Shown here piece after piece: positions 5,700 to 61,914 of a stretch of DNA of 64,000 bases. The translations under genes were made by a program, and so were the position numbers. This DNA is from a virus. Its lineage: Duplodnaviria > Heunggongvirae > Uroviricota > Caudoviricetes. Under the pieces are notes generated by a model. That model saw nothing but the letters and a program-made list of their open reading frames with translations. It made no database searches and was not told the DNA's origin. The number at the start of each line of letters is the position of its first letter. Position 1 is the first letter of the stretch. The stretch is from positions 109,443 to 173,442 of the IMG/VR virus record IMGVR_UViG_2595698871_000001; one strand, 5' to 3'.

Positions 5700-5775
5700 C
5701 CAGAGGAGAGTGGTTAGGTGGATGTCGACGATCCTTCTATCCAGGGCATCCGGTTCTGTCAACACACTCGCTCCG
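5700..5775 (-). promoter_or_regulatory. consensus promoter/leader element driving rIIA-rIIB
   Basis: Reverse complement reads gagcgaGTGTGTTGACAGaaccggatgccctggaTAGAAGGatcgtcgac...ggag..ATG; TTGACA, 17 nt, TAGAAG. Confidence 0.55.
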
Positions 5776-5998
5776 GCTTTTTGGTCGTGAATCTTGACGT
5801 TCTCGCACGGGTCAGGCACAATTTTCTCATGTGGTCAATCCGCAACATCACGACCGAAGCCTCCCACTCGATTCGCACCTGCACCGCCAAGGACTACCCG
5901 TGGCCTGAGCGGGGGTCGGAGGGCTGCATTTGTCGCGACCCTGGCGCGCGCCGTGACCGGGATTTCATGCTGCTGATCGACCGCCATGGCGAGATTCA

Positions 5999-6424
5999 AT
6001 GGTACGCGAGGACGACATGCCCGATCCACGGCCCGAAGATCACGACGGTGGACGTCGAAACAAAATCCACGACCTGATCGTCGGCGACCCGCGCGAGGAC
6101 CCGCGCTACAATCGCAAGCTCAGCAACCGCGACAAGACCGCCTTCCTCTGCGGCGTCCTGCGCCACCCGGCCCAGGCGTTCGACCTGGACCTGCCGTTCC
6201 CGGTCGAGGACTGGGTCGCCTCGGACGACAACTCCCTGATCGTCGCGGGCCTCTACCTGTCGGACCTGCGGCTCCAGTTCTATGACGCCCTGGAGGTCAA
6301 GCCCGACGACGAGCACGGCTTCGTGCGCCAGGGCGAGGCCGAGTTCTGGCACCACGCCTTCAACGTCATGGTCGAGCGCCGCAGCCACGGCGTGCTGGTC
6401 TCCGACGGGCGCGTGCTCAATTGA
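5999..6424 (+). CDS. hypothetical protein (141 aa; alternative start at 6017)
   Basis: Strong high-GC3 codon usage; first gene of the plus-strand block after the divergent region; start ambiguous. Confidence 0.5.
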   Translation: MVREDDMPDPRPEDHDGGRRNKIHDLIVGDPREDPRYNRKLSNRDKTAFLCGVLRHPAQAFDLDLPFPVEDWVASDDNSLIVAGLYLSDLRLQFYDALEVKPDDEHGFVRQGEAEFWHHAFNVMVERRSHGVLVSDGRVLN

Positions 6425-6792
6425 CCCTGCTCTATGACGGCGCCCTGGAAGGCAACTGCGTCGGCCGCTTCGTGCGCGCCGGCCAGACCTTCGACGTCAT
6501 CCGCCCCGGCTACGACGCCCAAGGGGTCAAGCGCCAGACCTGGACCCAGATCATCCACGACGGCGTGCCGGTCTTCGAGGTCAAGGTCCGCACCGACCTC
6601 GACAACGTGATCGACCGCTTCGACGCGCTCTGGGAACGCCACATCGGCGATGACGACGACCTGCTGGCCCGCGCCCTGACCTCGGTCAAGCGCGAGCGGG
6701 CCTCCAAGTTCCGCGATGGCAAGGCCGGCGTCGCGCCCGCCCCGACCCTGGCCCATGACGAGCATCCCTACCCGCCGCATTATGTCGCATAA
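6421..6792 (+). CDS. hypothetical protein (123 aa)
   Basis: TTG start overlapping the upstream TGA (TTGA); good codon usage. Confidence 0.5.
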   Translation: MTLLYDGALEGNCVGRFVRAGQTFDVIRPGYDAQGVKRQTWTQIIHDGVPVFEVKVRTDLDNVIDRFDALWERHIGDDDDLLARALTSVKRERASKFRDGKAGVAPAPTLAHDEHPYPPHYVA

Positions 6793-6793
6793 T

Positions 6794-6866
6794 GTTGGCG
6801 TGAGACTGTTGACATCTCTGATTTTGTGACATAGAAGCCTCCTCGACGACAACGAAGGAGGCTTTC
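6794..6866 (+). promoter_or_regulatory. full-consensus promoter/leader element (GTTGGCGTGAGACTGTTGACAT-N17-TAGAAG-CTCGACGACAACGAAGGAGG)
   Basis: TTGACA at 6809-6814, TAGAAG at 6832-6837, CGACGACAACG at 6844-6854, GGAGG RBS, ATG at 6867. Confidence 0.6.
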
Positions 6867-7493
6867 ATGCCCAAGCGGATCAAAGGCAAGCGTATCGCCC
6901 TGCACCAAGCCAAGGTGCTGGACGCCCAAGAGTTCCAGATGGTTCTCGACCGCGCCGAGCAGGGTGACAACCCGCTGCGTGACCGCGTGCTCTTCAAGCT
7001 CTCCTTCTACTGCGGCATGCGTGTCGCCGAGATCGCCGGCCTGGAGTGGCGCAAGCACCTCCTGGACGCCAGCGGCCGGCTGCGCCCCGCCATCCACATC
7101 ACCCACGACATCGGCAAGAACGCCGTCGCCCGCCACGTCCCGATCGAGGCGTCGCTGGCGGCTGACCTGCGCGCCCTGCGCAAGGAACGCGGCGGCGATC
7201 GCTTCGTTGTCTACCCGCTGCGCGCCTCGATGCGCGGTGGTCCCGAGAAGACCGACGCCAACACCCTGGCTCAATACATGCGCCGCATGTACCGCGAGAT
7301 CGGGCTGGACGGCGCCTCGTCGCACTCGGGCCGCCGCACCTTCATCACCGATCTGGCGCGCAAGGCGAACATGTTCGACTGCTCGCTCCGGGACATCCAG
7401 GAGATGGTCGGGCACCGGCGGATCGAAACGACCGGGACCTATATCGAGACGAGCCCCCGCCAGGACCGGCTCGTCAACATGGTCCTGCGATAG
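6867..7493 (+). CDS. tyrosine recombinase (phage-integrase family), catalytic domain only
   Basis: Box [25 protein letters not shown]; [14 protein letters not shown] (H..R); box [22 protein letters not shown] (catalytic Tyr); only 208 aa, no N-terminal core-binding/SAM-like domain. Confidence 0.75.
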
Positions 7494-7502
7494 GGGGCGG
7501 CG

Positions 7503-7913
7503 ATGACCTTCATCTGCACCGAACTGGACAACGCCACCCCCGTCGACCTGGACGCGGCCGAGGCCCTCCTCGCCACGACCCCGCGCAAGCGCGCCAACTT
7601 CGCCAAGGCCAAGGGTGTCTGCCGCGAGTGCGGCGCGCCCAAGCACGAGCGCCGCCTGGGCGCGGACTTCTGCTCGGCCCGCTGCCGCTCGGACTTCCAC
7701 AACCGGGCCAAGATGGAAGGCGCCTCGATCGTCCACATCATCAAGCGCTGGCGCCGTTACCGCCGCCCCGGCGATTTCGCCCTGATGACCAAGATGGCTG
7801 ATGACCTGATCCGCATGGACAAGGCCCTGAAGCGCGACTTCTACCCCGATCCGCCGGCCACCGCCCACGCCAAGGTCGTCGCCACCAATATCGCCGGCCG
7901 CCGCCGCGCCTGA
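7503..7913 (+). CDS. hypothetical protein with a Cys4 zinc-ribbon (CRECG...CSARC)
   Basis: ORF with good codon usage; C-x2-C-x13-C-x3-C motif; basic C-terminus. Confidence 0.5.
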   Translation: MTFICTELDNATPVDLDAAEALLATTPRKRANFAKAKGVCRECGAPKHERRLGADFCSARCRSDFHNRAKMEGASIVHIIKRWRRYRRPGDFALMTKMADDLIRMDKALKRDFYPDPPATAHAKVVATNIAGRRRA

Positions 7914-7928
7914 AGTAAGGAGTACAGC

Positions 7929-8183
7929 TTGAACCAACCCACCGAGAAGCCCGTGTTCGCCACCGAGAGCGGCGGTTACCTTTTCCAGGTCTACGCCGCA
8001 CCGGCTGACCACGGCCGCGCCTACCTGGGCTTCTGCGACGGCGTCCTGAGCGTCAGCGGCGACACCGTCGATGTCACCCTGCGCGCCCTGGCCCGCAAGC
8101 ACGCCGAGCCCAAGCGCACGGCCCAGGTCATCGACTTCACCGCCGAAAAGCTCAAGCGCCTGGGCGCGGTGGTCGCGGCCTGA
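7929..8183 (+). CDS. hypothetical protein (84 aa)
   Basis: TTG start 8 nt after an AAGGAG RBS. Confidence 0.45.
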   Translation: MNQPTEKPVFATESGGYLFQVYAAPADHGRAYLGFCDGVLSVSGDTVDVTLRALARKHAEPKRTAQVIDFTAEKLKRLGAVVAA

Positions 8184-8572
8184 TGGCGTCTCCTGTCGAA
8201 GAGCGCCTGGACCCGACGATCCTGGCCCCGCTCATCTACCGCCACTTCTACAACGGTCCCGTCGGCGGCGCGGCCTTCCGCCTCGCGCGGATCATCCGCA
8301 ACCACGCCATGGGCCTGCCGATCCTGTCGTTCGCCGAGGTGCTCGACGAGTACCTGAACGCCAAGCTCGGACTCAATGACAGCGCCGACCCCGAGATCAG
8401 GGCGGAGAACGAGCGCACCCTCAAGACCGCCCGCGCGGCGTTCTGGAAGGCGCTCAACGGCATAGGCGATCCCGAGCACGTCGACGGACTGGTCCGCTAT
8501 GCCCAGGCCAAGAGCCTGAGCGAGTGCATCGCCGAGACCCTTGAAAAACGTCGTCCGCAACAACTGTCATGA
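8183..8572 (+). CDS. hypothetical protein (129 aa)
   Basis: ATG overlaps the upstream TGA; good codon usage. Confidence 0.5.
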   Translation: MASPVEERLDPTILAPLIYRHFYNGPVGGAAFRLARIIRNHAMGLPILSFAEVLDEYLNAKLGLNDSADPEIRAENERTLKTARAAFWKALNGIGDPEHVDGLVRYAQAKSLSECIAETLEKRRPQQLS

Positions 8573-8575
8573 ATC

Positions 8576-8639
8576 TTGACACCTGTCGGGAAAGGGGGCT
8601 AGATGACCCCCGCCTTTCACCCCCGTCCCGACAGGCTTC
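8576..8639 (+). promoter_or_regulatory. promoter (TTGACA-N17-CTAGAT) overlapped by a 10-bp inverted repeat (putative operator) upstream of the primase gene
   Basis: TTGACA 8576-8581, CTAGAT 8599-8604; inverted repeat CCTGTCGGGA (8582-8591) / TCCCGACAGG (8626-8635) flanking a GGGGG..CCCCC core. Confidence 0.4.
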
Positions 8640-11600
8640 ATGTCCGATCCCTTTGATTTCCTCGCCGCGCTGTTCGCGGCGCATGAAGGCCCGATCGCCT
8701 TCGAACACGACAACAAGACCGTCAAGACCCGCGAACCTGAGTTCGTCGAGGATCATGCCGGCGCCCTTTACGTCTCGCCGTCCACGCCGGACGGCCGCGT
8801 CGCCTTCGTGTTTGGTTCCGACCAGGACGTCGACCGCGACGCCTGGGAGTCGTTCCGCCTCAAGCCGACCGTGGTCCTCTACAAGGAGAAGACCGGCGAC
8901 ATGATCGTCGCCTGGGCCTTCGAGGAGACCCAGGAGCCCGACGACGTCCGCCGGCTGGCCGACGCCCTGGGCATGGCTGATCTGGAAGAGCCGATCCCGC
9001 TGCCGGGCACCAACGGCTGGACCTTGGTCCACGCCGAGGAGAGCGACTACTACAAGCTCGACGAGGTCGAACGCGTGTACGCGCCTGACCGCAAGGTCGG
9101 CTACCCCGACCCGCCCAAGAACCGGCAAAAAGATCGGCAATTTTCTGACACGGCTTCCTCGCAAGCCTCGGAAAAGGCTGGGAAAAAGGCTGCTTCGAAG
9201 ACCGGCAAGAAAACCGGCGCCGACGACCCGCCGTGGGACGAGGACCTCGGCGTTTATGCCGACGCCCAAATCAAGACCCGCTACGACGAGAGCGACCCGG
9301 CCCTGAGCCGCGAGATCATCGTCTCGGTCGGCGGCAACAGCAAGTCGATGAACTGGCAACCCAAGGCCATGCCCCTGGGCGCGTTCGTCGCGCAGTTCTG
9401 CCAGCACCGCGAGGGCGCCAAGGATGGCGTCTCCTTCGTCATGGGCGACATGGTGCCCGGCCAGCGCAAGAAGACGGCGGTCAAGGCCCTCTACGCGGTG
9501 GGCCTGGACGTCGACGTCGGCATGGCCTCCTCGGCGATCGACGCGGCGCTGAAGAAGTTCGGCCGCATGGCCGTGCGCTACACCACCCACTCGCACCTGA
9601 AGTCGGTCACGGACGTCAAGAAGGACGTGCTGATCAAGTGGTGCGAGCAGGAAGCCGACGGCGCCGACTACGAAGAGGACGAGGTCCTCCAGCGCTACTT
9701 CCTGGCCAAGGACCTGATGACGCCGGAGATCGCCAAGACGGTCGAGTTCAACGGCACCGAGCACAAGGATGGCGGCATCATGGTGAGCGTCAAGCACGCT
9801 CCCATCGCCAAGCACCGGATCATCGTGCCGCTCGCCGAGGCGTTCGACATCTCCAAGGTCGCCCCGACCCAGAAGGAGGCGATGGAAAAGTGGGCCAAGG
9901 TCCCGACCGCCCTGGCGGCGGAACTGGGCGTGCCGCTCGACAAGTCGTGCCTGGACCCCTCGCGCCTGTTCTATCTGCCGCGCCACGCCAAGGGCAAGCC
10001 GTTCGAGGTCAGCCTGTTCGGCGGCGACCTGTTCGACTGGAAGAGCCTGACGCTCGACGATCCGTTCGAGGCCGAGATCGCCAAGCTCTCCAAGGGCACC
10101 AGCAAGTCCAAGACCGCCGCCGGCCGTGACCTCGGCCGCTGGTCGATGAAGGCCGCCCACGGCTTCCAGGTCGTGCAGGTGATGGAGGAGCACTGCCCCG
10201 ACAAGCTGCGCCATCAGGTCTCGGCCGGCTACGAGATCGAGTGCCCGTTCGACGACCTGCACTCCAACGCCGGCGACACCGAGGACCGCGCCTGTCTGGC
10301 GGTCAATGCCGGCGACGGCCCTAGCGAGTGGTTCACCGTCCGCTGCCAGCACGAGTCCTGCCGCGAGTTCACCAACCTCGACATGCTGGGCAAGATGGTC
10401 GAGGACGGTTGGTTCGATCGCGCCTGCCTGGACGACGAGGACTACAACATCGTCGAGGCCGAGAACGCTCCCAACCCGGTGGCGGCCAAGCGCATCGAGA
10501 CCGAGGACAAGGCCAAGGAAGCCTACATGCAGGCGATCTTCGACCTGCCCGAGGTGGACTTCACCGACGACGACGTCGACAAGGTGGTGCGGACCTGCTG
10601 CGAGGCCGCCCTGGGGACCCTGGCCGAGAACAAGGCCAAGGACGCCCTCAAGGCGCGCCTGGGCGTCAACGGCACGGTCATCAACAAGATGTTCAAGGAC
10701 ATGAAGGCGGCCATCGCCCGTGACCAGAACACCGAGGGCAACATCAAGGACCCGCTGGGCCGCAGCGTCTTCTCCTACGCTGGCGAGTTCAACTTCGACG
10801 AGGCGTTCTCCTGCTGCTTCCGGGCGCTGCTGAACACCAACCGCGAGAAGGACCAGCCGATCTTCTCCTGCTTGCAGGACAAGCCGGTCCGGATGGCGAC
10901 GGACGTCGATGGGCGCCTGAAGTTCACCGAGATCGGGGCCTCGGCCGCGATGAACGCCGAACTGAACGAGCTTGTCACCTTCGTGCGCAAGAACGACCAG
11001 GGCACGGGTGTGCGCGGCCGGGTGCCTGACGACGTCGCCCGCCACGTCTACGAGAAGTGCTACACCCGTCTGCCCCGGACGCCCGAGATCATGTACACCC
11101 CGATCTATACGGCCGACGGTGACCTGATCCGCAAGCCGGGCTGGTATCAGAACCTGGACATCATGATGGCCGACATCGGCTTCCAGGTGCCCAAGGTCTT
11201 CAGCGACCCCACGCCCGAGGAGGTCCAGGAGGCCGTGCGCCTGCTGACCGACGACGTGCTGATCGACTTCCCGTTCCTGGACTACGACACCCAGGGCAAC
11301 GAGCGTCGCGAGCCGTCGCTGGCCAACGCCATGGCGATGTTGATCACCCCGTTCATGCGCCGCATGATCGATAGCTGCACCCCGGTGTTCTTCGTCTCCA
11401 AGCCCACGCCGGGCACGGGCGGCACGTTCCTGGGCATGGTGCCGATCATCCTCTTCGACGGGGAAGAGCCGGCCCCGATCCGCTATACCCAGAACGAGGA
11501 GGAGATGCAGAAGGCCCTCCTGGCGTCGCTGATGAATTCGAAGGCCTACCTGTTCTTCGATGACGTGAAGGAGTTTAACAACCGGGTGTTGCTGATGGCG

Positions 11601-12296: not shown

Positions 12297-12322
12297 CGGG
12301 GGTGAGTGCTCCAGGACTACGA

Positions 12323-12356
12323 GAAAGGCCCCAGGAGCGATCCTGGGGCCTTTTGA
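12323..12356. terminator. intrinsic terminator hairpin between convergent genes (GGCCCCAGGA gcga TCCTGGGGCC TTTT)
   Basis: Perfect 10-bp GC stem with a 4-nt loop; TTTT on the plus strand, TTTCTC on the minus strand. Confidence 0.6.
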
Positions 12357-12365
12357 GTTGTAGCC

Positions 12366-12755: not shown

Positions 12756-12804
12756 GAAAATCTCCAGAGGCGGGAATGTCGCCCTTCATGACACGCCCGG
12801 CAGT

Positions 12805-12870
12805 AGACGTAAAGTGTTGACAGACGACACTCGATCCCGGTATGTGATCCTTGTACGGTAAGGGAAACCG
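12805..12870 (+). promoter_or_regulatory. promoter-like element (aaaGTGTTGACAGacgacac...)
   Basis: TTGACA 12817-12822 with a weaker -10 (gtatgt); drives the plus-strand regulator cassette. Confidence 0.35.
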
Positions 12871-13470
12871 ATGAACGACGACGATTTGGACTGGCAGGAC
12901 GGCGAGCTTTCGCCGGCCCGCGCTCCGGTCACGACCAAGGACATCGCCGATGTCGCCCAGGCTCCGGCCGGCGGGCGGATGGCGGCGATGCGTGAAGCGG
13001 GTGATGCGCATCGGCGCGACTTCCTGCTCCTGCGCGGTCCGCTGGGCGTGGTCCGTCTGTCGCTCGCGCACGTTCCGGCGCTGCACGCTCTTTGGCGAGT
13101 CTGGTCGCGCAAGCGCACGGCCCAGACCGCCGATCCTGGCGCCAGTCTTGCAGAGATCGGCGAGGAGATGAATTTGCCGGCGGCCTCGGTGCGTCCGATG
13201 GTCGTCAGCCTGCTCAAGAACCGACTCATCCGGACGCGGCGCAGCCACCACGGATGGCAAGGGGTGCGGGCGACCTACTACCCGTCGGCGATCGCCGTCC
13301 AGGCCCTGGCCTTGGCGGAGGTCCTCGGTCCGGGGCATGCGGTTCAGGTGGGGCGCAACGCCTCGGCCTGGGCCAATCGCAGCCTGACCGAACCCGGCAA
13401 CCTGTTCCAACACGCCGCCTTGTTGCGCGGCGGGGCTCCCCTCGGGGCCTCCGAGACGGAGTATTCATGA
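12871..13470 (+). CDS. hypothetical protein, possible winged-helix (MarR-like) DNA-binding protein
   Basis: Segment SLAEIGEEMNLPAASVRPMVVSLLKNRLIRTRRS resembles a MarR-type recognition helix and wing; weak. Confidence 0.45.
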   Translation: MNDDDLDWQDGELSPARAPVTTKDIADVAQAPAGGRMAAMREAGDAHRRDFLLLRGPLGVVRLSLAHVPALHALWRVWSRKRTAQTADPGASLAEIGEEMNLPAASVRPMVVSLLKNRLIRTRRSHHGWQGVRATYYPSAIAVQALALAEVLGPGHAVQVGRNASAWANRSLTEPGNLFQHAALLRGGAPLGASETEYS

Positions 13471-13471: not shown

Positions 13472-13888
13472 ATGCCTCAACGCCAAAAAGACGTCCAAGC
13501 CCAAGCCGACAAGCCCGCTGGGGCTCAGGGAGGCGCGCAGCCTGGAAGTTCTCAAGGCGAGGCCGCCCAGGCTGCGCAGCTTCTGAGCCCCGAGGCGATC
13601 GGTCAGATCGGCGAAGCGCTCGGCGGCCGGACCCATTGGCAGGCCTCGATCGCCCGCCGCGTCGGCGTCTCCAAGTCGCAGATCACCCGCTACCTCAACG
13701 GCGATCGCACGCCCAACACCGCGCTGGGCGACAGCTATCTCGAACTGATGCTCGACAACCTCGCCGAGCTTTCGGACCTGCTCTCGACGCCCGGCCTGCC
13801 CCAGGCTGACGGTGCCGACGTCGCCGAAGCCCAGCGCCACATCCATCACGCCGTGCGCCTCCTGCGCGACAAAGTTCTCTACGCCTGA
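13472..13888 (+). CDS. HTH (XRE-like) DNA-binding protein
   Basis: ASIARRVGVSKSQITRYLNGDRTPN is a helix-turn-helix signature; the N-terminus is low-complexity A/Q/G-rich, so the start is uncertain. Confidence 0.5.
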   Translation: MPQRQKDVQAQADKPAGAQGGAQPGSSQGEAAQAAQLLSPEAIGQIGEALGGRTHWQASIARRVGVSKSQITRYLNGDRTPNTALGDSYLELMLDNLAELSDLLSTPGLPQADGADVAEAQRHIHHAVRLLRDKVLYA

Positions 13889-14358: not shown

Positions 14359-14385
14359 TCCCAGACGAAATCCCAACCAGAACTC

Positions 14386-14419: not shown

Positions 14420-14427
14420 GTCCAGGT

Positions 14428-18812: not shown

Positions 18813-18859
18813 TCCTGACATTTGCCCCGAGACGGCCGGCTTTGTCAACGCTTGGAATC

Positions 18860-18890
18860 AAAAGGGCCGCCCCGCAGGACGGCCCTTTCT
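18860..18890. terminator. GC hairpin (AGGGCCG ccccgcagga CGGCCCT) flanked by A-tract/T-tract; probable terminator
   Basis: 7-bp stem; TTTTGATT on the minus strand; followed within 10 nt on the minus strand by a TTGACA-like box upstream of the DUF1643 gene. Confidence 0.45.
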
Positions 18891-24779: not shown

Positions 24780-24815
24780 GACACTATCGATTTCCCTCCG
24801 GCTTTGTCAACGCTT
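24780..24815 (-). promoter_or_regulatory. promoter-like element (gcgTTGACAaagccggagggaaatcgATAGTG)
   Basis: TTGACA (reverse complement of 24806-24811) and a -10-like ATAGTG 17 nt downstream; lies between the PTH2 stop and the next gene. Confidence 0.4.
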
Positions 24816-25291
24816 TAACGCAGGAGCTTCAGCGACGAGGGGGCGTGGTATTTGAACGCCGCCTCGGTGATCGGCCCGATCCCCACGAAGGTCACGGTCG
24901 GCTTCTCGAAGACGGTGCGCCCGGCGTCGACGACCAGGGTCGCGCCGGCATACTCCCGGAAGCGCTCGTAGAGGGCTTCCAGTTCTTCGTTGGTGCCGGT
25001 GTGGAGCGCGATCTTCGCCGCCGACTGCGAGTAGCGGTACTGGCGCGCGGTCTTGGGGAAGCGCTCCATGGCGTCCCACCACGCATGCAGGTAGGCGTGG
25101 CCAGCCTGGGCGGAGAGCTTGCCGATGTTGAGGGACTTGTCCTCGGGCTTGCGGCTGCGCTTGGCCACGGTCATCGCGTCGAGCGCTTCCTGGCTGACGA
25201 TGGCGTAGAGGCGCAGTTCAGCCTTGGACTTGCCGGCGAAGCACGCCATCACGAGGTCCCAGGCGTGCAACCAGCTTTCGAAGAATTTCAT
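24815..25291 (-). CDS. peptidyl-tRNA hydrolase, PTH2 (archaeal/eukaryotic) type
   Basis: GKLSAQAGHA (cf. GKVAAQCSHA of human PTRH2) and LVVDAGRTVFEKPTVTFVGIGP (cf. [21 protein letters not shown]); C-terminal SLKLL. Confidence 0.7.
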   Translation of the reverse strand: MKFFESWLHAWDLVMACFAGKSKAELRLYAIVSQEALDAMTVAKRSRKPEDKSLNIGKLSAQAGHAYLHAWWDAMERFPKTARQYRYSQSAAKIALHTGTNEELEALYERFREYAGATLVVDAGRTVFEKPTVTFVGIGPITEAAFKYHAPSSLKLLR

Positions 25292-26766: not shown

Positions 26767-26769
26767 GAA

Positions 26770-26840
26770 AAGGGCCTCCGGCGTTGTCGTCGAAGGCCCT
26801 TCTAGCGAGTCGGTGTCAGGCTGTCAACACTTGTCAGCCA
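26770..26840 (-). promoter_or_regulatory. consensus promoter/leader element
   Basis: Reverse complement reads GTGTTGACAGcc..(17)..CTAGAAGGGCcttCGACGACAACGccGGAGGcc..ATG. Confidence 0.55.
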
Positions 26841-27442
26841 GCGTCTTCCACCAGCCGCGCGATCCGCTCGAAGCCCAGTTCCAGGCGGCCCCAGAAGGCA
26901 CCGGGCACGTGCGGCTTGACGACCTCGGTGAAGCGGGCGCGCTCCTTCAGGTACATCTTGGCCATGCCCAGATGCGGTGCGTTCGTCGCCGGGTCCTTGA
27001 TCGAGGCCTCGACGTTGGCGATCCGATCGGCCAGCTTCAGGATGCAGGCCTCGGGGTGCTCGCCCAGCTTGCGGTAGATGTCCTCGTTGCGGGCCTTGCG
27101 GTTGGGGCCGATGCCCGACACCGCCCAGACCAGCGCCGCGACGCGCTCGCCGAACTTGTCCTCAACCATCTGCCGGCGGGCCTCGGGCGTCATGTCGAGG
27201 TGGGTGTCCTCGATCACGTCGTGCAGTTTGGCCGCCGCCGTCCAGGTGAAGCCCGCATAGCCGTAGTCGTCCAGGATGCGCTCGACCTTCTGGAGGTGGT
27301 AGAGGTAGGGCTGGCCGGCGTACTGCTGCTCGCCGTGCGCGGCGATGGCGAACTTCGTCGGGTCCTCCTGCTGGTAGGTGCCGGGGGCGTCCTCCATCAG
27401 GCTGGCCAGTTGATCGGGATCGGACAGGGGCGTGTCGGTCAT
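26834..27442 (-). CDS. small alarmone hydrolase (SpoT/RelA-type HD domain, Mesh1-like (p)ppGpp hydrolase)
   Basis: FAIAAHGEQQYAGQPYLYHLQKV...AAKLHDVIEDT...ILKLADRIANV matches the HD hydrolase signature (H...HD....D, KLADRLHNM) of RelA/SpoT and SAH enzymes. Confidence 0.75.
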   Translation of the reverse strand: MTDTPLSDPDQLASLMEDAPGTYQQEDPTKFAIAAHGEQQYAGQPYLYHLQKVERILDDYGYAGFTWTAAAKLHDVIEDTHLDMTPEARRQMVEDKFGERVAALVWAVSGIGPNRKARNEDIYRKLGEHPEACILKLADRIANVEASIKDPATNAPHLGMAKMYLKERARFTEVVKPHVPGAFWGRLELGFERIARLVEDAG

Positions 27443-31169: not shown

Positions 31170-31179
31170 GTGCTCCTCG

Positions 31180-31245
31180 CTGCCGTTGTCGTGATTTACG
31201 ACTTTTGACCACGCCCTTCGTCGTCTGTCAACACACCTTCGATCG
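31180..31245 (-). promoter_or_regulatory. promoter/leader element upstream of rtcB, embedded in the 3' end of a small upstream ORF
   Basis: Reverse complement reads GTGTTGACAGacgacgaagggcgtggTCAAAAGtcgtaaatcaCGACAACGgcagcGAGGAGcacATG. Confidence 0.5.
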
Positions 31246-31375
31246 CCTCGATCTGAGATTCGGCCAGAAAACGGATCGCCGCGTCGTCGGCCCCGCAGCG
31301 CCCGATGATCTGGTCGAGGACCTCCAGGGTGTCCTCCAGCATGCTGCGGTAGGTGTTCTCGCGCGGGGTGCTCAT
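31196..31375 (-). CDS. small hypothetical protein (59 aa), tentative
   Basis: MSTPRENTYRSMLEDTLEVLDQIIGRCG...; ATGA-coupled to the upstream small ORF; acceptable codon usage. Confidence 0.35.
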   Translation of the reverse strand: MSTPRENTYRSMLEDTLEVLDQIIGRCGADDAAIRFLAESQIEAIEGVLTDDEGRGQKS

Positions 31376-31476: not shown

Positions 31477-31492
31477 CGCTGCCTCCCTGAAA

Positions 31493-31529: not shown

Positions 31530-31556
31530 GTAGTCCAAATCTAGGCCGTCAGGCCG

Positions 31557-33700: not shown

Positions 33701-33775
33701 ATCGGGTCTCCTTGTTGTCGTCGGGCGTGACTTCTAGCCGGCGTCCGTGGGGCTGTCAACACTTTCGCTCACGGG
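33701..33775 (-). promoter_or_regulatory. consensus promoter/leader element (its -35 lies inside the last codons of the upstream gene, and its -10 CTAGAAG contains that gene's TAG stop)
   Basis: Reverse complement reads aaGTGTTGACAGccccacggacgccggCTAGAAGtcacgccCGACGACAACaAGGAGacccgatTTG. Confidence 0.55.
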
Positions 33776-35199: not shown

Positions 35200-35280
35200 G
35201 GCGGGTCTCCATCAGCAGGTGATGGAGCCCTTCTAGGCCCTCTCGACCTAGCCTGTCAACACTCTCGCGCCAACAAAATG
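35200..35280 (-). promoter_or_regulatory. consensus promoter/leader element
   Basis: Reverse complement reads ttGTTGGCGCGAGAGTGTTGACAGGctaggtcgagagggcCTAGAAGGGCtccatcacctgctgatGGAGAcccgcGTG. Confidence 0.55.
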
Positions 35281-38907: not shown

Positions 38908-38990
38908 GAGAGGTCTCCTCTGTCGTTGTCGTCGAGGGGCTTATAGGCGGAGGTCAGTGACCTGTCAACACTCTCACGCCAACTTTACGC
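38908..38990 (-). promoter_or_regulatory. full-consensus promoter/leader element
   Basis: Reverse complement reads aaaGTTGGCGTGAGAGTGTTGACAGGtcactgacctccgccTATAAGcccCTCGACGACAACGACAGAGGAGacctctcTTG. Confidence 0.6.
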
Positions 38991-40715: not shown

Positions 40716-40795
40716 CGCGGTCTCCAGATTGTCGTCGTCTCGACATCTAAGAGGCTTTTCCGAGCCTGTCAACACAATCACGCCAGCGATTGGGG
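40716..40795 (-). promoter_or_regulatory. consensus promoter/leader element
   Basis: Reverse complement reads ccaatcGCTGGCGTGATTGTGTTGACAGGctcggaaaagcctCTTAGATgtCGAGACGACGACAAtcTGGAGAccgcgATG. Confidence 0.5.
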
Positions 40796-42246: not shown

Positions 42247-42320
42247 GTGGGCCTCCTTCGTTGTCGTCGGAGGCCTTCCTAGACTGGCGCGAGTGTGTTG
42301 TCAACAGCCCGAGGCCGACG
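42247..42320 (-). promoter_or_regulatory. consensus promoter/leader element
   Basis: Reverse complement reads cTGTTGACAAcacactcgcgccagtCTAGGAAGGCCTCCGACGACAACGAAGGAGGcccacGTG. Confidence 0.5.
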
Positions 42321-43626: not shown

Positions 43627-43901
43627 CAGGCCCTCTGCTTGGTCACGGCGGCGTACACGACGTCGATCATCATGCCCAGGGTCGTGTCCTGGTCGGGGAA
43701 GTCCTCGGGAAGTTCGATGAAGAACTCCTCCTCCAGCGACATCGCCAGATCGACAAAGTCGAGGCTGTCGAACCGCAGGTCCGGACCGAGACGCAGGTCC
43801 TTGTGGTAGTCGTCCAGAACGATGGGCGTCTCGCTCATCATGTGCGCGAATTCGTACACCGCGATCTGGACTTCACTCCACGTGACTTTTGTATCGGCCA
43901 A
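43626..43901 (-). CDS. acyl carrier protein-like protein
   Basis: LGPDLRFDSLDFVDLAMSLEEEFFIELPEDFPD aligns with E. coli ACP [29 protein letters not shown], including the phosphopantetheine-site Ser of DSLD; TTG start with aagggga RBS. Confidence 0.65.
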   Translation of the reverse strand: MADTKVTWSEVQIAVYEFAHMMSETPIVLDDYHKDLRLGPDLRFDSLDFVDLAMSLEEEFFIELPEDFPDQDTTLGMMIDVVYAAVTKQRA

Positions 43902-43980
43902 GGACTTCCCCTTCTGCTGCTGCCCGGCGCTTCTAGCGAAGCTTCACCAGGACGTCAACACTCTAACGCCAGACCCAACT
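43902..43980 (-). promoter_or_regulatory. consensus promoter/leader element (TTGACG variant)
   Basis: Reverse complement reads gttgggtCTGGCGTTAGAGTGTTGACGtcctggtgaagcttcgCTAGAAGcgccgggcagcagcagAAGGGGAagtccTTG. Confidence 0.55.
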
Positions 43981-46801: not shown

Positions 46802-46875
46802 CGGGTCCTTCCGTTGTCGTCGGCCGTGACTTTAGAGGGTCACGGCTGAGCCTGTCAACACATCAAGTCAGGGCT
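46802..46875 (-). promoter_or_regulatory. consensus promoter/leader element
   Basis: Reverse complement reads GTGTTGACAGGctcagccgtgaccCTCTAAAGtcacggcCGACGACAACGGAAGGAcccgATG. Confidence 0.55.
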
Positions 46876-48951: not shown

Positions 48952-49025
48952 CGGGGCCTCCTTGGTTGTCGTCGACGCTCCCTATAGACCCGGTCTGTCA
49001 GCCTGTCAACACTCGACAGCCAAGT
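48952..49025 (-). promoter_or_regulatory. consensus promoter/leader element with a duplicated CTGTCAG half-site
   Basis: Reverse complement reads GGCTGTCGAGTGTTGACAGGCTGACAGaccgggtCTATAGGgagcGTCGACGACAACcAAGGAGGccccgATG. Confidence 0.55.
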
Positions 49026-53273: not shown

Positions 53274-53345
53274 GGGAACTCCTCTATGTCGTCGTCTCGA
53301 CCCTTCTAGGTGGAGGTTACCGTTCTGTCAACACACAACCGCCAA
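53274..53345 (-). promoter_or_regulatory. consensus promoter/leader element
   Basis: Reverse complement reads cctcGTTGGCGGTTGTGTGTTGACAGaacggtaacctccacCTAGAAGGGtCGAGACGACGACAtAGAGGAGttcccGTG. Confidence 0.55.
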
Positions 53346-53350
53346 CGAGG

Positions 53351-53383
53351 CAAAAAGAAACCGCCGACCCGAAGGCCGGCGGT
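53351..53383 (-). terminator. intrinsic terminator (CCGCCGACC cgaa GGCCGGCGG; TTTCTTTTTG on the minus strand)
   Basis: 9-bp stem with one mismatch; T-rich tract on the minus strand only; between the stop of the 620-aa gene and the next promoter. Confidence 0.55.
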
Positions 53384-53404
53384 TGGGAGGTGTGGGCTCG
53401 GGAA

Positions 53405-56731: not shown

Positions 56732-56868
56732 GACGCTCCTCGATTTTCGCCGGCACCCTAGAGGAGCGCCGATGTGTTGACAAGCGCCAAATGGCTCTGG
56801 CTGGCGAGTGTTGACAAGGCGGCGGTGGTCCCTTAGAAGGGCGGCGACGACAACGAAAGGAGGCGCTG
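56732..56868. promoter_or_regulatory. divergent promoter hub: minus-facing element plus two tandem plus-facing GTGTTGACAAG boxes, then CTTAGAAGG, CGACGACAACG and AAGGAGG
   Basis: Plus strand: TTGACA at 56776-56781 and 56811-56816, TAGAAG at 56834-56839, CGACGACAACG at 56845-56855, ATG at 56869; minus side: cctctaggg-like -10 at 56756-56764 and a gaggag RBS. Confidence 0.5.
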
Positions 56869-58572: not shown

Positions 58573-58573
58573 C

Positions 58574-58762
58574 GTGACCAACGAGGAGATCACCTTCGCG
58601 GGCCTGATCAAGGCCATGGAGGACGCCCGCCGCGAAGCCCGCGCGGTGGGCGATCTCCTCAAGTCCGCCGAGATCGACGGCTGGTTCAAGGAGCACGCCC
58701 GGATCATCCGGGTGATCCGCGACAAGGCCGAGGCCGAAGAATTCGACAATCCGTTGGCGTGA
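58574..58762 (+). CDS. small hypothetical protein (62 aa), tentative
   Basis: GTG start 2 nt after the upstream stop; its stop lies inside the next promoter element. Confidence 0.35.
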   Translation: MTNEEITFAGLIKAMEDARREARAVGDLLKSAEIDGWFKEHARIIRVIRDKAEAEEFDNPLA

Positions 58763-58826
58763 GAGTGTTGACAGCCTCGCCGCGCCCGGCTACAAGCCTC
58801 CTCGACGACAACGCAAGGAGCCTGTC
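58750..58826 (+). promoter_or_regulatory. full-consensus promoter/leader element
   Basis: GTTGGCGTGAGAGTGTTGACAGcc..CTACAAG..CTCGACGACAACGcAAGGAGcctgtcTTG; TTGACA at 58768-58773. Confidence 0.6.
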
Positions 58827-59990: not shown

Positions 59991-60391
59991 TGCGCTTCGT
60001 CTCCCCGAACCAACCCTACTGCCGCTGCTGCGGCAAGCCGATCAAGAAGTTCACGCTCCGGCACTCGTTTGGCAAGAGCGAGTACAAGGACCATGGCTGG
60101 TCGATCTCGCGCACCGAGAAACCGATGTCCAAGGAGGAACTCCAGCGCGCGGTCAACGGCCGGATCATCTCGTTCACCTGGGATCACAACACGACCTATG
60201 ACGCCAACTACGAGCCGGTTCGCACGAAGACCTTCATCGGCGAGGCCAACGTCTGGGACGGCGAGACCTACGAGGCGCAGTTCTTCTGCACCATGCGGTG
60301 CGCCGCCGCGTTCGGGGAGATGGCCGCCCGTGAATATCCCGGCCTCCACACCCAGACCTACGCTGACGCCATGAAAAAGAGGGAGGGCTAA
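59990..60391 (+). CDS. hypothetical zinc-ribbon protein (133 aa)
   Basis: ATGA overlap; PYCRCCGKP...FFCTMRC. Confidence 0.5.
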   Translation: MRFVSPNQPYCRCCGKPIKKFTLRHSFGKSEYKDHGWSISRTEKPMSKEELQRAVNGRIISFTWDHNTTYDANYEPVRTKTFIGEANVWDGETYEAQFFCTMRCAAAFGEMAAREYPGLHTQTYADAMKKREG

Positions 60392-61113
60392 TGTCCGACG
60401 AGATCAGGAAGACCCACGAAGCCTTCGGCGTGATCGGCTACAGCCACACCCAGGGCGACACCGATCTGGTCGGCGTCGACTACGCCCAGGGGCACTACGT
60501 GTCCCTGACGATCAAGACGGCGATCGCCTACGAGGGCGAGACGCATGATCGCTTCCACGGCGACAAGTACATCTGCAAGGTGTCGATGAGCGAGGTCCAG
60601 TGGGCCTCCTTCATCGCCAACCCCAACCGGGGCGACGGCGTGCCCTGCACCTTGCAGTTCTACCGTGACCCGCTGACCGGCGAGCCCAAGCAGCCCAAGT
60701 ACATGCGCGAGCGCCTGACCCGCATCGACCGCACCCGCGAGGCCGTCACCGCGCGCGCCAAGGGCCTGTCGACCAAGGTCAAGGAGGCCCAGGCCGAACT
60801 CCAGCGGCTGATGGACGGCGGCCCGATCAAGAAGGGCGACCTCAAAGCGCTCAAGGACCTGCTCTACTTCGCCAACCAGGACATGGACATGAACCTGGGC
60901 TACTTCGTCGAGCGGGTCGAGGAGACCATCGACAAGGCGGTGGTCGACGCCAAGGCCCAGGTCGACGCCCACGTCGACTTCGTGGTCCGGGAACTGGGCG
61001 TGCGCGCCCTGGGCTCGCGGCTGCAAGCGGCGATCGACGCGGGCCATGAGCCGGGCGCGGTCGGCCAAGCCCTGCTCGACGCGATAGCCCCGCCCCAGGA
61101 GCCGCCGACGTGA
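60391..61113 (+). CDS. hypothetical protein (240 aa)
   Basis: ATG overlapping the upstream TAA; good codon usage. Confidence 0.5.
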   Translation: MSDEIRKTHEAFGVIGYSHTQGDTDLVGVDYAQGHYVSLTIKTAIAYEGETHDRFHGDKYICKVSMSEVQWASFIANPNRGDGVPCTLQFYRDPLTGEPKQPKYMRERLTRIDRTREAVTARAKGLSTKVKEAQAELQRLMDGGPIKKGDLKALKDLLYFANQDMDMNLGYFVERVEETIDKAVVDAKAQVDAHVDFVVRELGVRALGSRLQAAIDAGHEPGAVGQALLDAIAPPQEPPT

Positions 61114-61352
61114 GGACGCCCCGCTTCCTGAACCGCTGGCGCGACCGCGACCTCGCCGAGGAGAAGGCCTTCCAGACCAAGGGTCTGGCCTTCGCCCACG
61201 CCGCGCGCATCGCCGCTCGCCTGGGCGAGATCGTCCGCGTCGAGCACCAGGAACCCATCAGCCAAGCCTCCCCGAATTGGGCGGTGGTCGAGAAGTGGAC
61301 CTTCCACCCCGACGGCCGCCTGACCCGTGACCTCAAGAAGGAAATCCAATGA
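61110..61352 (+). CDS. hypothetical protein (80 aa)
   Basis: GTG start overlapping the upstream TGA. Confidence 0.45.
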   Translation: MRTPRFLNRWRDRDLAEEKAFQTKGLAFAHAARIAARLGEIVRVEHQEPISQASPNWAVVEKWTFHPDGRLTRDLKKEIQ

Positions 61353-61843
61353 CCCGCAGCACCTCCGACATCCTCGCCCGCATCAAGTCCCTGGAGAACG
61401 ACACGTCCGACTTCTTCGGCTTCCAGACGGGCGACCTCGTCTGCTACCTGCCGTTCGCCGACGCCAAGCCCTGGCTGAACGAGAACGCCACGGCCGAGGC
61501 CTGGGCGCCCAGCGTCAACACGCCCGAGGCGATCAAGTCGACCATCCACGACTACATGGCGTTCGCCTGGGACAAGGCCAACAACTGCCGGGGCCTGTCG
61601 GCCGGCCGCTCGCTCGACCACATGAAGGCGTGGCTCTGGCTTTACGGCGCCGACGAGGCCTGGGTCGAGGCCCTGCGCCTGGACAACTACACCATGTACG
61701 GTAAGCCCCAGCTTCGCGCGATCTGCGAGCACTTCGGCTGGGACTGGACGGCCTGGGACGACGGCTGCTGGACCAACAACGAGGGTGCGAGCGGCTCCAG
61801 CCCGGACGAGGTCGAGCGCGTCGGCGTGCTGGCTGACGCCTAG
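61349..61843 (+). CDS. hypothetical protein (164 aa, Trp-rich)
   Basis: ATGA overlap; good codon usage. Confidence 0.5.
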   Translation: MTRSTSDILARIKSLENDTSDFFGFQTGDLVCYLPFADAKPWLNENATAEAWAPSVNTPEAIKSTIHDYMAFAWDKANNCRGLSAGRSLDHMKAWLWLYGADEAWVEALRLDNYTMYGKPQLRAICEHFGWDWTAWDDGCWTNNEGASGSSPDEVERVGVLADA

Positions 61844-61914
61844 TTGGCGTTAGAGTGTTGACAGCCGTCAGGGCCTCCTCTATACCCACCCTCGACGACA
61901 ACGAGGAGGCCCCG
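61844..61914 (+). promoter_or_regulatory. full-consensus promoter/leader element
   Basis: GTTGGCGTTAGAGTGTTGACAGcc..CTATACC..CTCGACGACAACGAGGAGGccccgATG; TTGACA at 61859-61864. Confidence 0.6.

Follow-up and report, generated by a model that had tools for sequence, protein, structure and literature searches.

This locus raises the question of why so many small operons of one phage genome begin with nearly the same promoter and leader, and what reads these elements. The window is a 64,000-nucleotide stretch of the Caulobacter phage CcrRogue, a jumbo phage (NC_019408, 109443-173442), in which a first-pass annotation described about 20 copies of a composite promoter and 5' leader. A cassette of ~75 bp stands before most small early operons of CcrRogue. 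The nhmmer profile trained on 12 window copies yields 25 matches in the whole CcrRogue genome at a cut-off of E<=2e-5: 15 in the window (5.8, 6.8, 26.8, 33.8, 35.3, 39.0, 40.8, 42.3, 44.0, 46.9, 49.0, 53.3, 56.8, 58.8 and 61.8 kb) and 10 outside it, all absent from the training set. All 25 are intergenic and oriented with the next gene, in a window that is 96% coding; the genome-wide scan, proposed earlier as a check, places none inside coding regions. The matches span 115-203 kb of the genome, with none beyond, and this region consists of two arms that diverge from each other and carry small genes, most of them uncharacterised. Copy counts lie far above chance. At <=2 mismatches, CTCGACGACAACGA has 13 matches (1.05 expected); at <=1 mismatch, TGTTGACAGG has 15 (2.3 expected); exact GACGACAAC occurs 25 times in the 213-kb non-redundant genome (1.4-1.7 expected), with 20 of the 25 sitting 35-38 nt 3' of a TTGAC[AG] hexamer. 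The composite is thus borne out, with some coordinates corrected.

From 5' to 3', the cassette, here called class I, consists of a (T-rich) GTTGGCGYGAGAGTG extension, the -35 TTGACA(G), a spacer of 17+/-1 nt, the -10 (C)TAGAAG, 5-8 C-rich nucleotides (..CCTC), the leader GACGACAAC(GA), 0-6 nt, GGAGG, 5-8 nt and the start codon. GACGAC follows TTGACA at a distance of 36 nt in 13 copies, of 35 in 5, of 37 in 2, and of 33 and 38 in 1 each. The invariant part of the leader is the 9-mer GACGACAAC, with 10 exact promoter-linked copies in the window, where the variants GACGACGAC and CACGACAAC occur twice and once. A leader of 14 nucleotides had been called strictly conserved, which is overstated, the full 14-mer being exact in 3 copies only. 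The elements of the window are as follows.

5692..5777 (-): class I promoter at the rIIA/rIIB head, nhmmer E=4e-7; GTGTTGACAG and TAGAAG present, without the GACGACAAC leader; longer 5' UTR
6794..6866 (+): full class I cassette 5' of gp292 (tyrosine recombinase), with extension, -35, -10 and GGAGG; GACGACAAC at 6845-6853; orthologous copies in phiCbK and Kikimora
6830-6869: stem-loop of the gp292 cassette, GAAGCCTCCT pairing with AGGAGGCTTT, fold z=-3.2
26767..26842 (-): full class I cassette 5' of gp267
26768-26803: 13-bp stem-loop of the gp267 cassette, including the ribosome site and followed by TTTT, z=-3.7
31170..31246 (-): weak relative 5' of gp257 (RtcB), with GTGTTGACAG, a poor -10 and CACGACAAC; nhmmer E about 2
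33701..33774 (-): class I cassette 5' of gp252, without the TGGC extension; GACGACAAC at 33714-33722
35200..35274 (-): class I cassette 5' of gp250, perfect extension; stem-loop CTCCATCA/TGATGGAG (35203-35230) in place of the leader, hiding the ribosome site, z=-2.8
38908..38983 (-): full class I cassette 5' of gp241
40716..40787 (-): class I cassette 5' of gp239 (winged-helix protein), leader variant GACGACGAC
42247..42319 (-): class I cassette, type Ib, 5' of gp235; extension inverted in the -35/-10 spacer (ACACACTCGCGCCAG)
42250-42275: stem-loop of the gp235 cassette, GGCCTCC/GGAGGCC, z=-2.0
43860..43973 (-): class I promoter 5' of gp229 (acyl carrier protein), E=2e-5; CTGGCGTTAGAGTG-TTGACG...CTAGAAG, without the leader consensus
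46802..46873 (-): class I cassette 5' of gp222; stem-loop across the -10 (46820-46849), z=-2.0
48952..49024 (-): class I cassette 5' of gp218
53274..53346 (-): class I cassette 5' of gp208-gp209-gp210, leader variant GACGACGAC; gp210 is a TgrL/XRE homologue
53359..53384 (-): strong intrinsic terminator immediately 5' of the 53331 cassette
56732..56783 (-): Ib-like promoter of the gp203/GcrA-like operon, TTGTCA-ACACATCGGCGCTCCTC-TAGGGT, read directly from the sequence; near-palindromic -35 in common with plus-strand TTGACA at 56777
56796..56868 (+): class I cassette 5' of gp202 at the divergence point, without an anti-ribosome-site arm
58753..58826 (+): full class I cassette 5' of gp195, best nhmmer match (E=1e-18)
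61843..61914 (+): full class I cassette 5' of gp190
61866-61917: 10-bp stem of the gp190 cassette, GGGCCTCCTC/GAGGAGGCCC, covering the -10, start site and ribosome site, z=-4.3
8562..8639 (+): class II promoter-like element 5' of gp288, TGTCATGAATC-TTGACAC; GAATC at 8571-8575
12802..12870 (+): sigma70-like promoter 5' of gp286-gp285 (HTH protein)-gp284, common part only GTGTTGACAG; nhmmer E=0.3
18813..18863 (-): weak TTGACA promoter-like site 5' of gp279, outside class I
24785..24825 (-): weak TTGACA promoter-like site 5' of gp271, outside class I; nhmmer E about 2

The 31.2 kb site, listed earlier among the strong copies, is only a weak one. The supposed degenerate copies at 12.8, 18.8 and 24.8 kb have only (GT)GTTGACA (GTGTTGACA) in common with class I, and the one at 8.6 kb belongs to another family, TGTCGTGAATC-TTGACAC, which occurs 16 times in the CcrRogue genome. 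GANTC is invariant in this class II family; the 29 class I elements contain 5, without enrichment. At the divergence point, the plus-strand TTGACA at 56777 is rejected as a -35 of its own strand, being the -35 (TTGTCA) of the minus-strand gp203/GcrA-like operon promoter. The hairpin at 26768-26803 looks like a terminator; an identical hairpin sequence in the phiCbK paralogous copy 183481 is annotated as one (183509-183536).

The core of the cassette points to the host housekeeping polymerase. The Caulobacter sigma73 (RpoD) consensus is quoted as TTGaCgS / GCtANAWC (Malakooti and Ely 1995, via PMC8144410 and PMC13004042), and TTGACA-N17-TAGAAG fits it, with a hexamer spacer of 16-18 nt, in agreement with the host-type core first suggested. 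The position and orientation before genes are likewise those of promoters and are kept at orthologous sites. With Caulobacter sigma73 promoters the class I elements share the -35 TTGACAG, the -10 (G/C)CTAGAAG, the correct spacing and a last -10 position other than T, and this missing T is the sole reason why an E. coli-type promoter scan misses them. Unlike the host promoters, the phage set is far more uniform and has further conserved blocks, one at -50 to -36 and one at -3 to +11. Judged from these features, class I elements are probably early-gene promoters for host RNA polymerase with sigma73, one template used ~25 times. The early timing agrees with one temporal datum: phiCbK tgrL (gp216), reported as early and highly expressed, is the third gene of a phiCbK operon headed by a class I element (156557, minus strand, corresponding to window 53331, minus strand). 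Because replication genes are also reported early and several of them are headed by the other promoter class, any assignment of the promoter classes to times of expression is only provisional.

Recognition of these elements by a phage-specific sigma factor or polymerase, or by a GcrA-like protein at methylated sites, in place of plain host sigma73 holoenzyme is very improbable. The phage does encode a GcrA homologue, and a T5 A1-like phage protein has been proposed to modify the host polymerase. Yet both hexamers and the distance between them are those of a standard promoter for the host housekeeping sigma, GANTC has no enrichment in class I, neither a sigma factor nor a polymerase of the phage is described in the genome paper, and early genes need to be read before any phage protein is made.

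Downstream of the host-type core, the conserved CGACGACAACG starts 5-8 nt past the -10, where transcription is expected to start, and from this spacing the start site most likely falls at the G or A of GACGAC. The earlier view that the block forms the first nucleotides of every transcript is reasonable from its position. All transcripts would then share their first 11 nt, a U-free stretch rich in purines and in A/C that leads directly into a strong Shine-Dalgarno, and the predicted 5' UTR would measure about 20-30 nt. Exact copies of the leader are linked to a promoter in 20 cases and stand at none of the internal ribosome sites, and the leader is retained where a long hairpin replaces the ribosome site (Rogue 192573, phiCbK 185967, Karma, BL10); a role as a plain translation enhancer, one of the functions first suggested, fits neither observation. 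Since GACGACAAC never stands at internal ribosome sites, it belongs to the promoter or transcript 5' end and not to translation generally. The block may act as an initial-transcribed or start-site element that is tied to the promoter rather than to ribosome sites, fixes the start point, aids escape from near-consensus promoters and gives an unstructured 5' end.

The same position is compatible with GACGACAACGA being a shared 5'-terminal tag that works in the transcript, by protecting it from or directing ribonucleases (no U), by recruiting an RNA-binding protein, or by timed inactivation near GGAG as with T4 RegB, which cuts the GGAG of early-mRNA ribosome sites and needs an extended sequence context (PMC3014915). 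The block lies at the predicted 5' end in all copies, persists where no ribosome site follows and is conserved across host genera. However, the evidence does not separate action in DNA from action in RNA, no Rfam family matches within the window, and the block has neither the length nor the structure of a typical protein-binding RNA motif; such a tag seems rather unlikely.

About 40% of copies have a C-rich stretch 5' of the start site that pairs with the ribosome site, and ~60% are without it. Folding reaches z<=-2 in 6 of the 15 window copies; in 5 of these the 3' arm contains the ribosome site. Native arm pairs fold better than shuffled pairs in Rogue and phiCbK (permutation p<0.001); in Bajun the arm-pair permutation test is not significant. 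The unpaired probability of the ribosome site is 0.46 in the predicted primary transcript versus 0.28 in read-through RNA (paired p=0.002), and strong sequestration is found in 8/23 cassette copies versus 7/54 internal genes, a borderline difference (p=0.055). The masking hairpin would be carried only by read-through RNA from upstream genes. This arrangement raises the possibility, tentative at best, that the C-rich stretch is an anti-Shine-Dalgarno arm that masks the first gene's ribosome site in read-through RNA, leaving translation to transcripts from the local promoter. Besides the strong z-scores and the opening of the site in the predicted primary transcript, the arms match copy by copy, and the stem is kept with other sequences where the leader is replaced (CTCCATCA/TGATGGAG at 35259, minus strand; CTCCATG/CATGGAG in Kikimora). 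The copies at 56811 (plus strand, divergence point) and 53331 (minus strand, behind a terminator) cannot receive read-through, and both are without the arm. A precedent exists in T4 gene e (lysozyme) and I-TevI, whose ribosome site is masked in read-through RNA and freed by a promoter inside the hairpin (PMC3014915); in ~40% of cassettes the 5' arm similarly lies upstream of or across the predicted start and the 3' arm holds the ribosome site. In T4, by contrast, expression of single genes is postponed to late times and depends on a late promoter, whereas the cassettes would be early promoters of many first cistrons, with a statistically modest signal. Against such gating stand the restriction of the hairpin to a minority of copies, the Bajun result, the borderline comparison with internal genes and the reliance on a predicted start site; CCTC also occurs in the invariant start-site block, and the pairing could partly be a by-product.

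Upstream of the -35, the extension (<=2 mismatches) is found in 7 window copies, each time adjoining the -35; one further 2-mismatch match, off any -35, lies in coding sequence at position 590 and is probably due to chance. In one window copy the extension is inverted within the spacer; this version is conserved at 15-16/16 from phage to phage, and at one orthologous promoter phiCbK carries the extension upstream and Rogue carries it in the spacer. The extension may be pictured as a separate protein-recognition element at -50 to -36 that abuts the -35 and would be usable from either side. Its occurrence on both sides fits an occluding or re-reading factor (e.g. for early shut-off) better than a classical upstream activator. 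Neither regulator put forward in the first-pass annotation agrees with the data: for the phage GcrA homologue, GANTC is invariant in class II but not enriched in class I, and for the XRE protein, class I elements give no match to the TgrL position weight matrix from the literature.

Whether the extension, GACGACAAC (+1 to +11) or both bind a phage-encoded or virion-delivered protein that turns off (or on) all promoters of the early class at once is a further possibility, which we consider plausible but somewhat doubtful. T7 Gp5.7 suggests, as an analogy only, how one operator could serve all early promoters: this small DNA-binding protein is described in PMC5569994 as a repressor of the promoters that host polymerase uses on the phage genome. 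Between Caulobacter and Brevundimonas phages, whose proteins share only about 50% identity, the extension agrees at 14/15 positions; it adjoins the -35 in every case, in both orientations and on either side, and early transcripts are reported to fall after 15 min. All members of the subfamily have a conserved HTH_3 protein, gp285 (window 13472-13888), which is more divergent in Colossus, whose flank is a variant. On the other hand, no candidate protein for the extension is identified; TgrL, the sole phage regulator with a measured motif, does not match; the winged-helix gp239 is missing from phiCbK and from extension-carrying Brevundimonas phages; and about one third of copies keep the rest of the cassette without a good extension.

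Early promoters of T4 and T5 are also conserved beyond the hexamers, with upstream A-tracts and transcribed-region effects at T5 N25, and these extensions are thought to tune strength and promoter escape. As in CcrRogue, the consensus for the host polymerase continues on both sides of the hexamers, 5' of the -35 and within the initially transcribed sequence. In CcrRogue, however, the upstream block is GC-rich and invertible, and the transcribed block hardly varies and adjoins the ribosome site directly.

Against phiCbK orthologues, the -35 and ACGAC are conserved at 100% and the extension TGGC at about 90%, compared with about 55% for the spacer and about 45% for the upstream background. The architecture also occurs in Karma, BL10 and Brevundimonas phage Bajun, with variants in Colossus and Kikimora; among 185,579 bacterial genomes the composite has 4 chance-level matches, with 0 in Caulobacterales. 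A comparable arrangement is known from the T4-like phages RB49, phi1, PST and nt-1, as promoter-early stem-loop (PeSL) cassettes (PMC2839356, PMC4122927). In PeSL-like manner, the cassettes could be recombination patches whose homology shuffles small genes and which recombination homogenises. Their niche is the same, variable regions in which they separate small genes without known function. One translocation, in which Rogue gp152 with promoter 189203 equals phiCbK gp281 behind promoter 185967, has its junctions exactly at cassette ends, and several right-arm Rogue/phiCbK homology blocks stop at cassettes. Nevertheless, breakpoints in the window are not enriched at cassette-headed gene starts (1/20 versus 20/92), and the conserved blocks are separated by spacers that differ wholly from copy to copy. 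Spacers this divergent speak against recent copying between cassettes and, together with the conserved blocks, for selection on the blocks; upkeep of the similarity mainly by recombination is unlikely. Block similarity could partly stem from inter-cassette copying instead of per-block selection.

The CcrRogue cassettes, read as early promoters under selection, differ from PeSLs in several respects. Sequence homology is absent, CcrRogue being a GC-rich siphophage of an alphaproteobacterium and not T4-like; the region 5' of the -35 is a specific GC-rich 15-mer instead of an AT-rich tract; the invariant start-site block GACGACAAC has no PeSL counterpart; the stem-loop, restricted to ~40% of copies, usually has the ribosome site as one arm and a T-run in only 2; and the window breakpoints do not follow the gene-shuffling role of PeSLs. 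What the two have in common is a composite of <=~100 bp that takes up the intergenic space between small genes without known function, contains the upstream gene's stop codon and combines a near-consensus host sigma70-type early promoter, a stem-loop of varying position (including just before the start site), a Shine-Dalgarno and a start codon, in dozens of copies per genome, mostly in variable regions. In conclusion, the PeSL cassette of T4-like phages is the closest known kind, and the CcrRogue set is its GC-rich counterpart.

The window is identical (100%) to positions 109443-173442 of Caulobacter phage CcrRogue (NC_019408/JX100814; hereafter Rogue), a phiCbK-like siphophage of 224 kb (Dolichocephalovirinae, Poindextervirus). 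It is compared here with the annotated remainder of that genome, 100 kb of phiCbK, and 40-kb pieces of CcrColossus and of the Brevundimonas phages Bajun and Kikimora; coordinates are those of the window unless marked as genome. The recurrent composite of about 75 bp seen in the first-pass annotation, termed class I (upstream extension, -35, spacer, -10, leader and ribosome site), is confirmed, with counts far above shuffled expectation. The two best-conserved strings occur 13 times against 1.05 and 15 times against 2.3 expected after shuffling, and the exact leader GACGACAAC, a GACGAC-type block, is present in 25 copies in the 213-kb non-redundant genome (~1.5 expected), 20 of which sit 35-38 nt downstream of TTGAC[AG]. 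A profile trained on 12 window copies and run over the whole genome (cut-off E<=2e-5) retrieves 25 sites, 15 within the window and 10 outside it; the latter, none of them in the training set, score from 1e-14 to 1e-6. All 25 are confined to genome 115.2-203.1 kb, and the structural, lysis and replication modules hold none. Every window copy is intergenic, directly 5' of an annotated gene and on its strand, and across the genome the matches fall outside coding sequence, each facing the next gene. The window is 96% coding, and the cassettes occupy nearly the whole of the intergenic gaps, often overlapping the preceding gene's stop codon.

The earlier list of copies stands for the 15 that the profile supports, the copy at 31.2 kb being weak. 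The copies at 12.8, 18.8 and 24.8 kb, taken as degenerate members, have only GTGTTGACA in common with class I, and that at 8.6 kb belongs to a separate TTGACAC family, class II. The TTGACA at 56777 (plus strand) belongs to a promoter on the opposite strand, TTGTCA-N17-TAGGGT, which serves the gp203/GcrA-like operon; the hexamer is nearly palindromic and, read as TTGTCA, is the -35 of that minus-strand promoter. A 14-mer described as strictly conserved is exact in only three copies.

The promoter core is closely defined. The type Ia consensus (n=20) reads gtTGGCg.gagaGTG-TTGACA-g, and the leader-anchored consensus (n=22) reads cta.aa....cctC-GACGACAAC-gaagg.gg-cccc. The -35 hexamer is TTGACA or TTGACG in 25/25 profile sites, the -10 is (C)TAGAAG, TATAAG or TACAAG, and the two are separated by 16-18 nt. 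From TTGACA to the G of GACGAC the distance is 36 nt in 13 copies, 35 in five and 37 in two, with single copies at 33 and 38 nt. The G/A of GACGAC thus falls 6-9 nt past the -10, where general promoter geometry places the expected transcription start. Both hexamers match the published Caulobacter RpoD (sigma73) consensus, TTGaCgS and GCtANAWC. A generic E. coli-type promoter scan misses nearly all of the elements for a single reason: it accepts only T as the final -10 base. The poor recovery reflects the scan and does not count against promoters. The genome paper reports no phage sigma factor or polymerase and makes no mention of promoters, which, with the fit to the RpoD consensus, makes the host sigma73 holoenzyme the most likely reader. 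Hexamers, spacing and gene-facing position all fit the original proposal of host-RNAP sigma73 promoters, and on these features the class I elements are well supported as promoters.

The leader had been proposed as a translation enhancer, among other roles. Its distance to the -35 is fixed across copies, and it is absent before the internal ribosome sites of the window (~90 internal genes, many with GGAGG-type sites). At Rogue genome 192573 and its counterparts in phiCbK, Karma and BL10, the leader is retained with no ribosome site after it, and a long hairpin takes that place:

Genome 192609-192665, outside the window: long hairpin TGTCCGAAATTTGTASACAGATTTCGGACA following GACGACAAC; counterpart in phiCbK at 186003, also in Karma and BL10.

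The conserved hairpin may represent a small RNA or a structured 5' UTR. Its gene context differs between Rogue and phiCbK, apparently as a result of relocation. Because of the fixed distance, the absence at internal ribosome sites and the retention without a ribosome site, the block is assigned to the promoter or to the 5' end of the transcript, and the plain translation-enhancer reading fails. The sequence is compatible both with action at the DNA level, through start-site choice, promoter escape or a +1 operator, and with action in the RNA, as a U-free 5' tag.

The extension occupies -15 to -1 relative to the -35 and reads GTTGGCGYGAGAGTG, preceded in some copies only by a short T-run. Good matches are found only adjoining a -35, with the exception of a two-mismatch match within coding sequence at position 590, probably due to chance. 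In five Rogue promoters (type Ib) the extension lies in the spacer as its reverse complement, TTGACA-ACACTCTCGCGCCAAC-ATAGAAG, an inversion made possible by the near-palindromic TTGACAA/TTGTCAA:

42304, minus strand: promoter with inverted extension.
Genome 175062, 183465, 187949 and 192573: promoters with inverted extension.

The spacer-borne extension is kept at 15-16/16 positions between phages, whereas ordinary spacers drift. Before the MAYAIPDL gene, the extension is upstream in phiCbK and Karma and within the spacer in Rogue and BL10. This two-sided, mirrored placement favours a factor that would recognise 'extension plus -35' and occlude or re-read the -35, and fits an upstream activator or UP element less well. 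The 22-bp GTTGGCGCGAGAGTGTTGACAA is a candidate protein-binding stretch of the element.

Several known kinds of site were weighed for the extension. UP elements are A/T-rich sequences at -40 to -60; the extension has a G+C content of ~60% and is found in inverted form within the spacer as well. A sigma54 promoter has TGGCAC-N5-TTGC at fixed spacing, and the TGGC-N9-TTGAC of class I is 2 nt too long. The suggestion of an XRE operator was examined with the matrix of TgrL, the XRE-type regulator of phiCbK, from the ChIP supplement (~CAACC-N3-GGTTG): over the genome, its matches are not enriched in class I elements, and the extension scores 4-6 of 18.5 possible bits. The GcrA/CcrM site is GANTC, at best YGAKTCK (PMC4647560); the 29 elements hold five GANTC, about the genome density, and the earlier suggestion of an operator for the phage GcrA homologue is not supported. 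The winged-helix protein gp239 was rejected as the extension-binding factor, being missing from phiCbK and the Brevundimonas phages. A MotA-like activator was likewise rejected, Rogue gp286 showing only a sub-threshold IclR-type HTH match in Pfam. Gp286 (12871-13470, plus strand) belongs to a PHROG family of unknown function, and the Kikimora gene at the same position is annotated 'middle transcription regulatory protein motA'. The HTH_3 protein gp285 (13472-13888, plus strand) is conserved in all Dolichocephalovirinae searched, in Caulobacter and Brevundimonas phages alike (42% identity in Colossus), and is only a candidate for the extension-binding protein. The gp285 promoter itself lacks class I flanks.

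The design is conserved well beyond Rogue. Across 18 orthologous Rogue/phiCbK promoter pairs (16 in the leader-anchored alignment), the -35 and ACGAC are 100% identical and the TGGC and GTG of the extension 72-94%, against ~55% for the spacer, ~45% for the upstream background and ~75-80% for coding DNA. The consensus finds 13-19 places by BLAST in every phiCbK-like genome. Bajun, a phage of another host genus, has the same design, CTTGGCGCGAGAGTG-TTGACAGG ... GACGAC(A/G)AC ... GGAGAC; Colossus carries the variant GAGAG-TTGACAGACGGCG ... TGACGATCAA ... AAGGAGG, and Kikimora retains a cassette before its integrase. An origin as a copied host promoter was rejected, since the pattern GTGTTGACA..TA..GACGACAAC gives four chance-level matches in 185,579 bacterial genomes and none in Caulobacterales. 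Among the IMG/VR matches listed, those besides the isolates Karma and BL10 are mostly AT-rich contigs without the extension or a GC-rich context, and look like chance or convergence.

Some cassettes also have predicted stem-loops. Just ahead of the start site, a C-rich segment (..CCTC, CCTCC) complements the ribosome site, and in several cassettes the pairing is extended copy by copy:

Cassette 6809: stem arms GAAGCCTCCT/AGGAGGCTTT.
Cassette 61858: stem arms GGGCCTCCTC/GAGGAGGCCC.
Cassette 35259: leader replaced, alternative stem CTCCATCA/TGATGGAG masking the ribosome site.
Kikimora cassette: leader replaced, alternative stem CTCCATG/CATGGAG masking the ribosome site.
Cassettes 26827 (minus strand) and genome 187949: stem with a T-run.

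An identical hairpin sequence at the phiCbK copy 183481 is annotated as a terminator. Because the pairing register varies between copies, arm pairing was judged by permutation of the 5' and 3' arms. Native pairs outfold shuffled pairs in Rogue and in phiCbK (p<0.001 in each), and the test is not significant in Bajun. Folding reaches z<=-2 in 6/15 window cassettes (mean z -1.26), the other copies folding like shuffled sequence. In ~8-10 of the 23 Rogue copies, the 3' arm contains the ribosome site and the 5' arm precedes or spans the predicted start. In transcripts beginning at GACGAC, the ribosome site has a predicted probability of 0.46 of being unpaired, against 0.28 for read-through RNA (paired p=0.002); strong masking is seen in 8/23 cassettes versus 7/54 internal genes, a borderline difference (p=0.055). 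Terminators are not enriched in the window, so read-through is plausible. The stem-loop is taken here as a real but partial feature of ~40% of copies, and its predicted masking of the ribosome site in read-through RNA is moderately supported. Rfam gives zero family matches across the window. The logic of the stem-loop resembles that of T4 gene e and I-TevI, or of the attenuator stem in the PeSL (promoter-early stem-loop) cassettes of T4-like phages.

For the timing of class I, phiCbK offers one gene-level datum. The RNA-seq study of phiCbK infection reports that ~41% of genes reach their peak within 15 min, and it describes tgrL (gp216) as an early gene with high expression. This gene is the third behind phiCbK cassette 156557 (minus strand), the orthologue of the cassette at 53331 (minus strand). 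The 'early' assignment of the class is inferred from this one gene together with genomic position.

Class II, (T)GTCGTGAATC-TTGACAC, is a promoter-like family whose 16 copies precede structural, lysis, tRNA and replication genes:

8562-8639, plus strand: class II copy in the window.
Genome 20111, 22770, 25853, 31058, 33809, 48084, 57080, 72728, 78564, 103517 and 207931, plus strand: class II copies.
Genome 88012, 94219, 101440 and 109212, minus strand: class II copies.

Its members have an invariant GANTC (GAATC) adjoining the -35, and GTTAACCA is frequently present close to the -10. Over the whole genome, GANTC, the CcrM site, is under-represented, with 272 observed versus ~669 expected from base composition. 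The context TGAATCT/AGATTCA is the lowest-ranked variant for host GcrA (PMC4647560), and for this reason class II may be adapted to the GcrA-like protein that the phage encodes. Outside the window, at genome 10353 and 10580 (plus strand), TTGACA promoters with AT-rich UP-like upstream tracts, AAAATTTCCAAAATCATAAACCCGG-TTGACAG, and without class I flanks lie close to the right-hand boundary of the left terminal repeat (1-10321), one just inside it and one just beyond; they may be a third type, serving the first DNA to enter the cell.

Other features of the window concern gene ends, gaps and annotations. Near-identical bidirectional terminator hairpins, AAAGGCCCCAGGAGCGATCCTGGGGCCTTTT and AAAAGGCCCCGGAGCGATCCGGGGCCTTTTC, at 12297-12365 and 14359-14427 lie at convergent gene ends and flank an island of gp287 (minus strand) and gp286-gp284 (plus strand). 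Two non-coding gaps are unusually long, 18813-19090 (278 nt) and 31328-31556 (229 nt), and neither matches an Rfam family; in the second lies a hairpin that resembles a terminator and has a T-run, ACGCCGGCGGG...CGCCGGCGTTTTT. The small ORF gp256 (31196-31327, minus strand) overlaps the RtcB gene promoter, and the annotated GTG start of gp295 (5718-6077, plus strand) falls at 5718 in the rIIA promoter/5' UTR; both annotations look doubtful.

The nearest described kind to class I is the PeSL cassette. In that element, ~50 copies of which lie between orphan genes in each genome, a strong early promoter of sigma70 type is combined with a stem-loop whose position varies, and a Shine-Dalgarno sequence and start codon follow. 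The two have in common a promoter and Shine-Dalgarno filling the gaps before small function-unknown genes in many copies. They differ in that class I lacks the AT-rich tract of PeSL upstream of the -35 and has in its place the GTTGGCGYGAGAGTG block, specific, GC-rich and invertible; its start-site block is invariant, and its ribosome site serves as a stem arm. As junctions of recombination, by gene insertion, deletion or gene replacement, the cassettes also show no significant enrichment in the window; the right arm has one clean translocation with cassette-end junctions and several homology-block ends at cassettes. Class I promoters are undescribed in the literature searched by sequence string and keyword, subscription-journal papers on these phages lying outside the search.

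It is conceivable, though improbable, that the extension operator, the 5' RNA tag and the anti-Shine-Dalgarno arms form one control system of the early regulon. A Dolichocephalovirinae-wide protein bound to the invertible operator flanking the -35 would shut the class off; the universal 5'-terminal RNA tag GACGACAACGA would set the fate of early mRNAs; and the anti-Shine-Dalgarno arms just upstream of the start would make translation of each first gene depend on its own promoter and not on read-through.

In conclusion, the class I elements are read here as phage early-promoter cassettes, and the specific regulator proposals are not supported. Phages of the phiCbK type are standard tools of Caulobacter biology, and the early-promoter template, together with the methylation-site class, provides an operon map for ~170 uncharacterised genes. 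The cassettes offer strong and compact parts for gene expression in a GC-rich alphaproteobacterium, and the extension, start-site block and anti-ribosome-site arm are testable handles on the timing of the phage programme. A design known from T4-like myophages, the promoter cassette between orphan genes, is thereby extended to a GC-rich lineage of siphophages unrelated to them, which suggests a general solution for large phage genomes.
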